24,000 nt of DNA from Exiguobacterium aurantiacum. GTDB lineage: Bacteria > Bacillota > Bacilli > Exiguobacteriales > Exiguobacteriaceae. The number at the start of each line of letters is the position of its first letter. Position 1 is the first letter of the stretch. Below are positions 9,233-11,113 of this stretch, in pieces. Under the pieces are notes generated by a model. It worked only from the letters and a program-made list of their open reading frames with translations. It was not told the origin of the DNA and made no database searches. The stretch covers positions 35,318 to 59,317 of the forward strand of contig NZ_CP101463.1 in assembly GCF_024362205.1 (NCBI RefSeq), read 5' to 3'. A program made the position numbers and the translations under genes.

Positions 9233-9270
9233 GGGGTAGCTTCCCGTAAATGCGTATTTACAACGTTAAG
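9233..9270 (+). repeat. Tn3-family-type 38-nt terminal inverted repeat (left)
   Basis: GGGGTAGCTTCCCGTAAATGCGTATTTACAACGTTAAG has a GGGG outer end and an ACGTTAAG inner end, identical in form to the Tn3 IR ends. Confidence 0.7.
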
Positions 9271-9498
9271 CTGTTTGTGTTGATAAAAATAAAGCATATA
9301 CAACGATAAGAATTTTGAGACAAGTCATACAACAAAATACTAAATCGCTTTATTTGACGTAATTTCGATTATATCTCAATAGATTAAACCTTATTGTACA
9401 AGGTTTCCTGCTTTATCATTGTAAATCCGTATAATCCGGATGCTGCCCCTCTAAGAAGTAAGATGTTCTCATACCAATAAGGAACTCATACCATTTAA

Positions 9499-9843
9499 TT
9501 AATGAGAAGTGCTTGTTTTCGTGTCAGCAGATCTTTGATTAAGTATAATTACTCCACCGACAATCATAACTAAACCAATAAATGTAAGAATGTTGAATGG
9601 TTCATTCCACACCAAAACACCTATTAAAGCTGTCAGAGCTGTTCCTACACCTGACCAGATTGCGTAAGCTAAACTTAAAGGCAAAGTTTTTAAAGACAAT
9701 GATAATGTATAGAACGCTATGAAGAAGCCAATTGCTACTCCAATTGTGGGGTATATATTCGTAAATCCTTCAGATAATTTCAACATAGATGTTCCGAATA
9801 TTTCACCAATAATCGCAATTCCTAATGCAACATACCCTTTCAT
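9499..9843 (-). CDS. ebrB: Small multidrug resistance (SMR) transporter subunit, EbrB-like (paired-SMR)
   Basis: 114 aa with 4 predicted TM segments and the conserved membrane Glu in GEIFGTSMLKLSEGFT. AYAIWSGVGTALTALIG and ...VILNQ closely resemble B. subtilis EbrB as I recall it. RBS is AGGAAGG. Confidence 0.85.
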   Translation of the reverse strand: MKGYVALGIAIIGEIFGTSMLKLSEGFTNIYPTIGVAIGFFIAFYTLSLSLKTLPLSLAYAIWSGVGTALTALIGVLVWNEPFNILTFIGLVMIVGGVIILNQRSADTKTSTSH

Positions 9844-9860
9844 AATCCATCAACCTTCCT

Positions 9861-10178
9861 TTAATGAGACAATTTAAGTACCACAACACCAGCTATAATG
9901 ATTAGTAAGCCAAGTAATATTTTTAGATTAAACTTTTCTTTCCAAACAAGAATACCAACAATCGCAGTAAGAGCAGTTCCTGCACCAGACCATATTGCAT
10001 AAGCAGTTCCTAACGGAATGTGTTCTAATGCTTTGGAGAGAAGGTAAAAAGCACTCCCCATACCTATTACTAAACCAACTGTAGGGACTAATTTCTTAAA
10101 GCCATTTGATGCCTTCATCATAGAACTTCCGAATACTTCAAATAAGATTGAGCCAATTAATAATACATATGGATTCAT
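9861..10178 (-). CDS. ebrA: Small multidrug resistance (SMR) transporter subunit, EbrA-like (paired-SMR)
   Basis: 105 aa with the conserved Glu in FEVFGSSMMKASNGFKK and the motif AYAIWSGAGTALTAIVG. RBS is GGAGG. It has the same order and size as ebrA-ebrB. Confidence 0.85.
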   Translation of the reverse strand: MNPYVLLIGSILFEVFGSSMMKASNGFKKLVPTVGLVIGMGSAFYLLSKALEHIPLGTAYAIWSGAGTALTAIVGILVWKEKFNLKILLGLLIIIAGVVVLKLSH

Positions 10179-10189
10179 GTGATATCCTC

Positions 10190-10729
10190 CTAGGTTGTAG
10201 ATTCAATTAATTTTTCGATGATTTTTTCTCGTAAGTCAAAATTGATTTGTCCCAACTTAAAGAACTCGGAATAATAAAGACCATCGAGGGTAAGCCGAAT
10301 TGTTGTTGCTAGTACAGAGTCAATACCATCCTCATCAATTTTTGATTGAATATACTCGAAGTGGACGAGGATGTTTTCTGTAACAGTATGGTTCAATTTC
10401 GAAAAAGAATGAGATGCTATATTTAGAACTTGAGAATTGTTTAAATCATCAGTGTATGCATGTATTAAGGCGCGAGTCCATTTTCCTTTTTCTATAGGAT
10501 CATTCTCAGCTAATTCATTAAATCGGTATACAAAGTCTTGAAAAATTAGTTCAGTTATTCCAGCATATAATGCTTCTTTTGAGGGGAAATGATACAATAA
10601 ACCACCTTTGCTAACATTGGCTTGCTTTGCGACTGCTTCTAATGTCAAAGTATCAAAATCGTTTGAACCTAAGAGTTCTATTGCAGCATTTAGTAGATGC
10701 GCTCTTTTGTCCTGTCCTTTTGCTGACAT
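10190..10729 (-). CDS. TetR/AcrR-family transcriptional repressor
   Basis: Start MSAKGQDKRAHLLNAAIELL, preceded by AAGGAGGG. HTH is TLEAVAKQANVSKGGLLYHFPSKEALY. The track's longer start (10789) would run through its own promoter. Confidence 0.9.
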   Translation of the reverse strand: MSAKGQDKRAHLLNAAIELLGSNDFDTLTLEAVAKQANVSKGGLLYHFPSKEALYAGITELIFQDFVYRFNELAENDPIEKGKWTRALIHAYTDDLNNSQVLNIASHSFSKLNHTVTENILVHFEYIQSKIDEDGIDSVLATTIRLTLDGLYYSEFFKLGQINFDLREKIIEKLIESTT

Positions 10730-10760
10730 GATTACCCTCCTTTTATTATTCCATGAGATT

Positions 10761-10789
10761 ATTATACCGTCCGGACGGTTTTTTGTCAA
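10761..10789 (-). promoter_or_regulatory. Consensus sigma-A promoter with embedded palindromic operator for the tetR-SMR operon
   Basis: The minus strand reads TTGACA-N17-TATAAT exactly. The 17-nt spacer contains the perfect 14-bp palindrome ACCGTCCGGACGGT (10766-10779). Confidence 0.8.
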
Positions 10790-11075
10790 AATAAACTTAC
10801 CTTGAATTTATTTTGATAGGGATGTTCCAGAGTCAAAGTTTGTATTGTTTCTTAGAAAATGATTCTGTTAAAGGGCGCTATTCTGACATATGAACCAGCG
10901 TCCTTATTACATATAAGAAGCGCCATTGTTGAAGAAGCGCCTCAAAATTCAAGATACCTTAGTTCATTAAAGATTTATAAAGTATGCAAAATCATTCAAA
11001 ATAACGTTCCCAAATAAAAGTTTGGACGCAAACGAAAATCCTAGAAATCTTGCTTAAATAGTATTTCTTGGATTC

Positions 11076-11113
11076 ATTAAGGTTGTAAATACGCATCTTT
11101 CTTACACTAACCC
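11076..11113 (-). repeat. Tn3-family-type 38-nt terminal inverted repeat (right, outer half degenerate)
   Basis: The reverse complement is GGGTTAGTGTAAGAAAGATGCGTATTTACAACCTTAAT. ATGCGTATTTACAAC is identical to the left copy. Confidence 0.6.

Follow-up and report, generated by a model that had tools for sequence, protein, structure and literature searches.

The bcrABC operon of Exiguobacterium aurantiacum and an adjoining Tn1546-type miniature element

Between positions 9233 and 11113 of a 24,000-nt stretch of Exiguobacterium aurantiacum contig NZ_CP101463.1, called the window here, a TetR-type repressor gene and two genes for small multidrug resistance (SMR) transporter subunits are enclosed by two 38-nt inverted repeats (IRs), IR1 and IR3. 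A third repeat, IR2, lies between IR1 and the genes. All coordinates without a locus label are window positions. A first-pass annotation of the sequence had described the interval as a non-autonomous cargo cassette of the Tn3 family. About 30 contexts, each encoding exactly the window's BcrC or BcrA protein, were fetched for comparison.

The operon and the three terminal repeats

The three genes are located on the minus strand. The two SMR subunits, encoded by bcrC (9499-9843, 114 amino acids) and bcrB (9861-10178, 105 amino acids), both contain the Pfam domain Multi_Drug_Res (E = 2.5e-27 and 1.4e-29, respectively), and the "EbrA/EbrB-like" pair of the first-pass annotation was thus right in kind. 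The TetR-family repressor is encoded by bcrA (10190-10729); it has 179 amino acids when read from the ATG at 10729 and contains the domains TetR_N and TetR_C_28. From 9313 to about 11240 the window is about 98% identical in nucleotide sequence to 25 Listeria plasmids, and to one Vagococcus plasmid, in which the genes are annotated as bcrA, bcrB and bcrC. BcrC agrees with that of Listeria plasmid pCFSAN074383 in all 114 residues, BcrB with the Listeria protein in 103 of 105 and BcrA in 177 of 179; the window's exact BcrA protein is present on many contigs. The bcrABC cassette is recognized by a TetR gene followed by an SMR gene pair and by near identity to the Listeria reference; judged by their sequences, the window genes represent this known operon for resistance to benzalkonium chloride. 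The cargo had thus been described before. Among the plasmid-borne determinants of tolerance to quaternary ammonium disinfectants, bcrABC is the principal one in Listeria from food plants.

The probable promoter of the operon, TTGACA-17 nt-TATAAT, is found on the minus strand at 10761-10789. It matches the consensus in 12 of 12 positions and is the sole such match in 9100-11300. The spacer contains a perfect 14-bp palindrome, ACCGTCCGGACGGT (10766-10779), which is likely to be the BcrA operator, a prediction that follows the general mode of action of TetR-family repressors. BcrA would bind the palindrome within this consensus sigma-70 promoter and would be released by a cationic biocide, upon which BcrB and BcrC would form a two-subunit SMR pump exporting quaternary ammonium compounds.

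IR1 (9233-9270, plus strand) has its outer tip at 9233 and reads GGGGTAGCTTCCCGTAAATGCGTATTTACAACGTTAAG. IR3 (11076-11113, minus strand; reverse complement GGGTTAGTGTAAGAAAGATGCGTATTTACAACCTTAAT) matches it in 27 of 38 positions, as had been reported, with 19 of 20 in the inner half. In 300 first-order Markov shuffles of the window, scanned on both strands for the best 38-mer match to IR1, the mean was 21.7 and the maximum 25. The agreement between IR1 and IR3 is not due to chance, since no shuffle exceeded 25. IR2 (9412-9449, minus strand), which the first-pass annotation overlooked, is also inverted relative to IR1 and also matches it in 27 of 38 positions, at a spacing of just 143 bp; its outer tip at 9449 faces bcrC. 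A scan of the whole window for further copies able to pair with IR1 gave none above 23 of 38.

The family of the repeats was established by comparison with a complete tnpA-tnpR Tn1546-like transposon found in the type Y context described below (L005/L111), the full Tn3-family transposon with matching IRs that had been sought. Its transposase, TnpA, has 988 amino acids and the domain DDE_Tnp_Tn3. IRs of the Tn1546 group were defined as repeats of about 38 bp that start with GGGG, end with ...ACGYTAAG and resemble the IR of a transposon encoding DDE_Tnp_Tn3. IR1 agrees with the two IRs of the transposon in 33 and 32 of 38 positions, IR3 in 30 and 29, and IR2 with a transposon IR in 29. IR3 deviates from the pattern in starting with GGGT and ending with CCTTAAT, and IR2 in ending with ATGATAAA. 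This resemblance identifies all three as genuine Tn3-family ends and places the suggested Tn3-type origin of the repeats, more narrowly, in the Tn1546 group. Because it matches the Tn1546-type IR in 30 of 38 positions, IR3 is regarded as a genuine, old and degenerate IR. The near identity of its inner half to IR1 had been described correctly; its outer half, reported as decayed, is less so than the comparison with IR1 implies, as it agrees with the Tn1546-like IR in 12 of 17 positions.

The longest open reading frame (ORF) of the window has 528 amino acids, and no Tn3-family transposase domain was detected in those ORFs that were scanned against Pfam. The ORFs with transposase hits are IS21, IS3 or IS30-like, and the reported lack of a transposase between the repeats was borne out.

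The miniature element next to bcrC

The DNA between IR1 and IR2, together with both repeats, constitutes a non-autonomous, TIME/IS101-like miniature element of 217 bp (9233-9449). IR1 forms its left end and IR2 its right end. Between them, from left to right, are 29 bp, the sequence ACAACGATAAG (9300-9310), which is left over from the inner end of an IR and measures 11 bp, and a res-like module (9313-9411, minus strand). The res-like module contains an imperfect palindrome at about 9372-9398 and, at its 9313 end, the motif GACTTGTCTCAAAA on the reverse strand. No ORF of at least 60 amino acids was found inside 9233-9449. The element is thus of the TIME type: short, free of ORFs and bounded by two inverted Tn3-type IRs. 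The presence of IR2 at 143 bp from IR1 means that part of what had been called non-coding DNA in the interval is a complete IR element; the gene content reported for the interval, a TetR repressor and an SMR pair, was confirmed by Pfam.

The 217-bp unit matches unannotated units of 216-220 bp that possess both IRs and are 72-77% identical to it; the query matched 131 records. Many plasmids from the Bacillus cereus group, Priestia and other genera contain these relatives, some of them more than one, and the sites occupied differ. One stand-alone copy, in a B. cereus plasmid (L012 5900-6115), has the duplication TATTA on both sides. In the bcrABC contexts the junction of IR2 with the DNA downstream of bcrC, CCCC/TCTAAGAAG, is the same everywhere. 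IR1's natural partner is IR2, with which it forms a miniature element located outside the operon.

The res-like module shares homology with the DNA immediately upstream of tnpR in the Tn1546-like transposon of L005 and with the IR2-tnpR spacer of the Listeria plasmids. It has in common with the tnpR-upstream region a palindrome of the type TATCAATAG...CTATTGA and the motif GACTTGTMTCAAAA. Having no gene, the miniature element would not move by itself; its ends would be usable by a Tn1546-like TnpA supplied in trans. The module could let a resolvase separate cointegrates or recombine the miniature element with full transposons.

TIMEs of Pseudomonas are about 200-260 bp long. Like TIMEs and IS101, the window element is short and gene-less and has Tn3-family IRs that would be used in trans; it shares the possession of a res-like site with IS101. 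The succession of IR, res-like module and IR is the design of IS101 and TIMEs (PMC4133298). As in TIME-COMP and other mosaic elements, one of its ends pairs with another IR to move adjacent genes, as described below. Unlike the TIMEs, it is a Bacillota element of the Tn1546 branch, and the partner end that was used in L111 is that of an autonomous transposon rather than of a second TIME copy. Gram-positive hosts were not mentioned in the TIME literature searched.

The use of IR1 and the setting of IR3

The left boundary of homology to the window differs among the contexts. In those of type W (L015-L018, L020, L023 and L114) homology runs on through the window's left flank, which contains genes for proteins of 195, 591, 843, 452 and 300 amino acids. 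In type X (L010, L019, L021 and L022) homology starts exactly at 9233, after a flank reading ...TTATTCAAAAA, and in type Y (L005/L111) it starts at the same nucleotide, inside an aminotransferase gene. Three unrelated left flanks abut 9233 exactly. In Listeria, Vagococcus, L006 and L024 homology starts at 9313, the edge of the res-like module, at the ribosome-binding site of tnpR; to the left of this point, a serine-resolvase gene with a frameshift comes first and a glyoxalase gene next. The resolvase-glyoxalase segment of L006 is closed by another Tn1546-type IR, which yields a TIME-RES-like unit of 1.9 kb; this Listeria-type order of IR2, res, tnpR, glyoxalase and IR resembles TIME-RES. Because the IR2 junction is identical in every context, the side facing bcrC is regarded as fixed and IR1 and the res module as the active seams. 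These breakpoints indicate that IR1 is a real mobile junction, which has repeatedly joined the bcrABC segment to new DNA. A metagenome scan with the IR1 38-mer returned a single contig, whose flank is the same as the window's, and no new context.

The most direct record of such an event is found in L111, a metagenome contig of 258 kb (ENA ERZ16299697 NODE_85). Its positions 3010-10611 (7,602 bp) are occupied by an IR (GGGGTAGCGTCAGGAAAATGCGGATTTACAACGCTAAG), tnpA for the 988-residue DDE_Tnp_Tn3 protein, tnpR, padR, chrA, a second IR, a 100-bp piece equal to window 11213-11114, IR3, bcrABC, IR2 and IR1, in this order. The unit has TATAT on both sides and splits a class-V aminotransferase gene. 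Deletion in silico of the unit and one TATAT produces an uninterrupted aminotransferase ORF of 372 amino acids. It is proven, at the level of sequence, that IR1 has served as a working transposon end, which moved bcrABC in L111, and the movement of bcrABC by Tn3-family machinery is supported. The tnpA-res-tnpR module of L005/L111 is about 93% identical in nucleotide sequence to the module that stands beside vanRSHAXYZ in Tn1546, the VanA transposon of Enterococcus (E. faecium). Unlike Tn1546, the L111 transposon carries padR-chrA and the captured bcrABC as cargo and has no van genes, and the window has neither tnpA nor tnpR.

A two-step history is likely. The Tn1546-like chromate transposon would first have inserted 100 bp outside IR3. 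The transposase would then have used the IR on the tnpA side together with IR1, skipping the normal distal IR and IR3, and would have moved bcrABC as part of an enlarged transposon. The first-pass annotation had itself stated that its cassette would be refuted if the left IR belonged to a larger element extending elsewhere. In spirit this is the case, as the L111 unit, in which IR1 acts as an end, continues beyond IR3 as far as a transposase gene.

In Listeria and Vagococcus plasmids, copies of IS1216 or ISS1 flank the region. A composite transposon of IS1216 (IS6 family), in which the 38-mers would be irrelevant, has been proposed as the vehicle of bcrABC for Listeria pLM80, with no direct repeats found (PMC8508797). 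For the window this candidate was rejected, because none of the ORFs scanned encodes an IS6-family transposase. Moreover, the breakpoints between contexts lie at IR1 and the res module and not at the ends of insertion sequences, and the L111 event bears the signature of Tn3-family transposition. For the window, an IS1216 vehicle is thus scarcely credible.

The Listeria plasmids of the pLM80 type share with the window the TetR repressor BcrA, the SMR pair BcrB/BcrC, the upstream region, IR3 and a nuclease gene fragment that follows it. In contrast to the window, they have lost the left 80 bp of the miniature element, including IR1, which are replaced by the resolvase pseudogene and the glyoxalase gene. 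The window retains the complete 217-bp element and has no IS1216, and its IS21 elements and nuclease allele match Exiguobacterium.

The surroundings of IR3 are of a different nature. Just inside IR3 there is a subterminal segment (10920-11075), which is kept together with IR3 despite different cargo. Beyond IR3, a conserved 115-bp terminal segment (11114-11228) contains two direct repeats, AGTTTTGTTCATC (11138-11150 and 11155-11167), and is probably the right end of a larger element. It is 96-100% identical between the bcrABC contexts compared (the three flank types, the Listeria plasmids and L111), and over the next stretch, 11229-11366, identity drops abruptly to 64-92% with a third-codon-position pattern. 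The outer edge of IR3 was never a breakpoint of homology in any context compared. L111 retains only the first 100 bp past IR3 because the chrA transposon inserted at 11213. An exception among the contexts is the Vagococcus carniphilus plasmid (L002), which breaks inside IR3 itself, at 11096/97. There (L002 6748-6864), IR3 is cut after its inner 21 nt and is followed by a 72-bp palindrome with arms TTATCTTAACCATTCAAAACGA and by a well-formed outer IR half ending in CCCC. Two IRs may have been hybridized here, or the IR may have received a very small insertion; in the latter case the 72-bp palindrome would have displaced the true outer half of IR3, which this plasmid would preserve.

The decisive comparison is that with a Lysinibacillus relative (L055). 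It possesses the same gene for a 195-residue protein (95% nucleotide identity), the 155 bp inside IR3 (93%, L055 5602-5756), an IR3-like 38-mer (33 of 38 positions) and the same terminal segment (87-91%) and junction. Its cargo consists of about 5 kb of unrelated DNA, and it has neither bcrABC nor a miniature element. A search of plasmids with 10900-11232 matched essentially only bcrABC plasmids. Because L055 keeps IR3 and its flanks with an unrelated cargo, IR3 is not the edge of a bcrABC cassette. It appears instead to be part of a conserved end segment of about 310 bp (10920-11228) of a probable larger element. IR1 and IR3 are best described as related relics and not as the two ends of one mobile unit.

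The proposal that the 1.9 kb from IR1 to IR3 form a transposase-less bcrABC cassette, which would resemble a mobile insertion cassette or TIME-COMP and be moved in trans by a Tn3-family transposase, has several arguments in its favor. IR1(+) and IR3(-) are inverted, bracket the operon without a transposase and resemble Tn1546-type ends far beyond chance. The same IR family does build cassettes flanked by duplications. One unit, of 1,305 bp, combines an Hsp20 gene with a solo IR on one side and a full miniature element of 216 bp on the other. It is flanked by a perfect 5-bp duplication in two plasmids of B. cereus (L012 4811-6115 and L026 7728-9032) and recurs without duplication in a B. anthracis plasmid (L028 4001-5305). 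Another transposase-less cassette, of 1,465 bp, is present in Virgibacillus necropolis plasmid NZ_CP084993.1 (L080 5214-6678); its two IRs, each a 38-mer of the Tn1546 type, are identical, and it is flanked by the duplication TTATA. Its only gene belongs to the secreted endonuclease family of the nuclease that is truncated in the window. The Listeria plasmids pLIS12 and pLIS26 carry a qacH-like TetR + SMR mobile insertion cassette with 37-bp IRs of the Tn3 type and 5-bp direct repeats (PMC8508797). Like the window it combines a TetR regulator and an SMR biocide pump with Tn3-family IRs, but it is cleanly bounded by IRs and a duplication and has a single qacH-type SMR gene instead of a pair. 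A 1,009-bp cassette with a GNAT acetyltransferase gene and the same IR type was also noticed (L012 911-1919).

Since IRs of this family build such cassettes, the proposal was reasonable; the data on IR3 do not fit it. The flanking pentanucleotides, ATTTT before IR1 and TACGA after IR3, differ as first reported, and there is no duplication. Homology stops at 9233 in front of three flanks and at 11113 in no context, so of the two edges at which the unit should end in other sites only the left one stands. L055 preserves IR3 and both its flanks without bcrABC or IR1, the tip of IR3 is GGGT, IR1 has a nearer partner in IR2, and in the single proven transposition, that of L111, the partner of IR1 lies beyond IR3. 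A self-contained cargo cassette extending from IR1 to IR3 is therefore very improbable.

In a deeper history, an ancestral transposon of the Tn1546 type (IR, tnpA, tnpR, bcrABC, IR3) would have carried bcrABC as cargo and had IR3 as its true right end, and IR3 would have been stranded when the left part was lost or replaced via the miniature element; this is unlikely, although by a smaller measure. IR3 is oriented rightly for this, with its inner side towards bcrA, and has the 30 of 38 agreement given above; the 155 bp inside it look like a conserved subterminal segment; cargo of the Tn1546 group sits between tnpR and the distal IR; and the miniature element's lack of a duplication agrees with a deletion next to it. 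Against it, tnpA and tnpR were not found in the expected arrangement to the left of bcrC among the roughly 30 contexts, and L055 has the same IR3 and subterminal segment. As this IR3 accompanies an unrelated cargo, a specific link between IR3 and bcrABC is not required. Such an ancestry is compatible, as an earlier stage, with the reading favored here.

Taken together, the interval is with good probability the known bcrABC operon, a res-bearing miniature element of the Tn1546 type with a functional and recurrently used outer end, and an old IR stranded inside the end of another element. Several observations weigh against this interpretation. No pairing of IRs in the window has a 5-bp duplication (ATTTT precedes IR1, TCTAA follows IR2 and TACGA follows IR3), so the miniature element is not a simple insertion there, and its history would have involved a deletion, a cointegrate or recombination. 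More widely, duplications were sought for IR1/IR2, for IR1/IR3 and crosswise in the window, L006, L012-L014, L027 and L028, mostly with none found. A clear duplication was present in just one of the four or five stand-alone Bacillus-group copies examined. Copies more than 98% identical to the window's miniature element were seen only beside bcrC, which makes its independent transposition conjectural. No observation ties a given TnpA to the L111 event, and IR3 could be the original right end of an ancestral transposon carrying bcrABC. Finally, the larger tyrosine-recombinase element, described below, is recognized by Pfam hits that are weak (E = 7e-5 and 6e-4), and the comparison made to define its left end did not do so.

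The truncated nuclease gene, the larger element and the spread of bcrABC

The conserved terminal segment abuts a nuclease gene of which the 3' part is present (11229-11681, plus strand). The gene encodes a secreted lipoprotein, a DNA/RNA non-specific endonuclease, and is cut at the codons ...ADSL/GGVSNAY (GGVSNAYNITPQ). More than 570 relatives of this nuclease were detected in Bacillales genomes. The 80 loci fetched match residues 12-161 of the query, with the exception of L055 (1-161), and it follows that homology to the nuclease starts at 11229. In the 41 loci checked for the extent of the ORF, again except L055, the ORF is open for a further 430-800 nt upstream, and most have a lipoprotein signal peptide; a full-length relative contains the domain Endonuclea_NS_2. 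The junction 11228/11229 is the same in at least five diverged nuclease alleles, namely those of the window, L015, L016/L018, the Listeria type and L055.

On the other side of the operon, the neighboring backbone (7301-8843, plus strand) consists of the C-terminal part of a gene for a 591-residue tyrosine-recombinase-like protein and a gene for a 195-residue protein (8256-8843). It is 98-99% identical to L015-L018, L020 and L023. The complete type W order is a full-length AT-rich gene for a 300-residue nuclease, the genes for the 452-, 843-, 591- and 195-residue proteins, about 380 bp, the miniature element, bcrCBA, IR3, the 115-bp end segment and the nuclease 3' fragment. The 384 bp between the 195-residue gene and IR1 (8849-9232) are specific to contexts of the window type. 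Within them are a strong hairpin that includes a T-run (about 9166-9205) and, on the minus strand, a promoter-like site.

The weak hits mentioned above are to Phage_integrase, in the 452- and 591-residue proteins. Distant relatives of the latter are annotated as tyrosine recombinases, and the 843-residue protein contains an HTH_17 domain; NCBIfam gave no usable names for the backbone proteins. In GCA_038006045.1 two copies of the backbone, which share 10.3 kb, are found on contigs of 3.1 Mb and 128 kb. Comparison of L016 with L018 did not define the left end, since the whole 300-residue nuclease gene and 208 bp upstream of it are common to both, and searches for an empty site in the same lineage and for a circular form found neither. 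With its left end undefined, a Tn554-like site-specific element remains a matter of inference; its right end would probably be at 11228.

Tn554 and Tn6188 are site-specific transposons with two tyrosine recombinases, and Tn6188 carries tetR and qacH in Listeria. The backbone may be likened to them for its two tyrosine-recombinase-like genes and its small accessory genes, for cargo that sits at one end, and for a junction that does not vary within a conserved host gene. It differs from them in its larger proteins (452, 843, 591 and 195 amino acids), which give weak Phage_integrase hits only, and in its apparent target, a nuclease gene instead of radC.

The rest of the window is crowded with insertion sequences. 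Three packed IS21-family elements occupy 433-7262, with istA/istB pairs at 433-2432, 2718-5059 and 5104-7262; the third truncates the 591-residue recombinase-like gene at about 7328, and parts of these elements match an Exiguobacterium arabatum plasmid at about 95%. To the right of the nuclease fragment, two IS3-family elements stand next to each other (12258-13585 and 13652-15222), and farther on there is a transposase gene of the IS30-like kind (21607-22542). The ORFs in 15631-16905, 17011-18189 and 18682-20954 have helix-turn-helix hits only (HTH_3, HTH_17) or no Pfam hit, and pieces at 18282-19438 match L022 at 87-90%. The GC content of the window swings from about 29% to 64%, and the region is accordingly heavily mosaic.

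It is possible, and proposed here tentatively, that the original vehicle of bcrABC was an undescribed Tn554-like element, encoding the 452- and 591-residue recombinase-like proteins and the 843- and 195-residue proteins, which would integrate site-specifically at the codons for the catalytic GGVSNAY motif of a secreted DNA/RNA endonuclease gene common among the Bacillales. The res-bearing miniature element would have been the means of escape from it, a portable end for Tn1546-like transposases. If true, this would account for the arrival of bcrABC in chromate transposons and, once recombination at res had taken place, in the Listeria plasmids, and the machinery behind its escape would be the same as that which moves VanA vancomycin resistance. 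Such a nuclease-targeting tyrosine-recombinase element, located outside the interval first reported, is partly supported.

The operon itself was already known, and the miniature element and the enlarged transposon are new instances of TIMEs, IS101 and mosaic Tn3-family elements. In full-text searches of the literature, no paper came to light that connects bcrABC with repeats of the Tn1546 type or with a miniature element, or that reports the miniature element or the enlarged transposon beside the operon. The Tn1546-group miniature element directly downstream of bcrC provides a concrete and testable route for the movement of bcrABC, which was hitherto vague, and the L111 unit links biocide (bcrABC) and chromate (padR-chrA) resistance on one Tn3-family unit. 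The comparison further shows the Listeria arrangement to be derived and truncated. Environmental Bacillales preserve the structure more fully, which points to the origin of the cassette. The findings extend end capture of the TIME type to Gram-positive relatives of Tn1546 and to a biocide-resistance operon. They introduce no new kind of biology and are unsurprising in principle, and they are useful for tracking the spread of biocide resistance.

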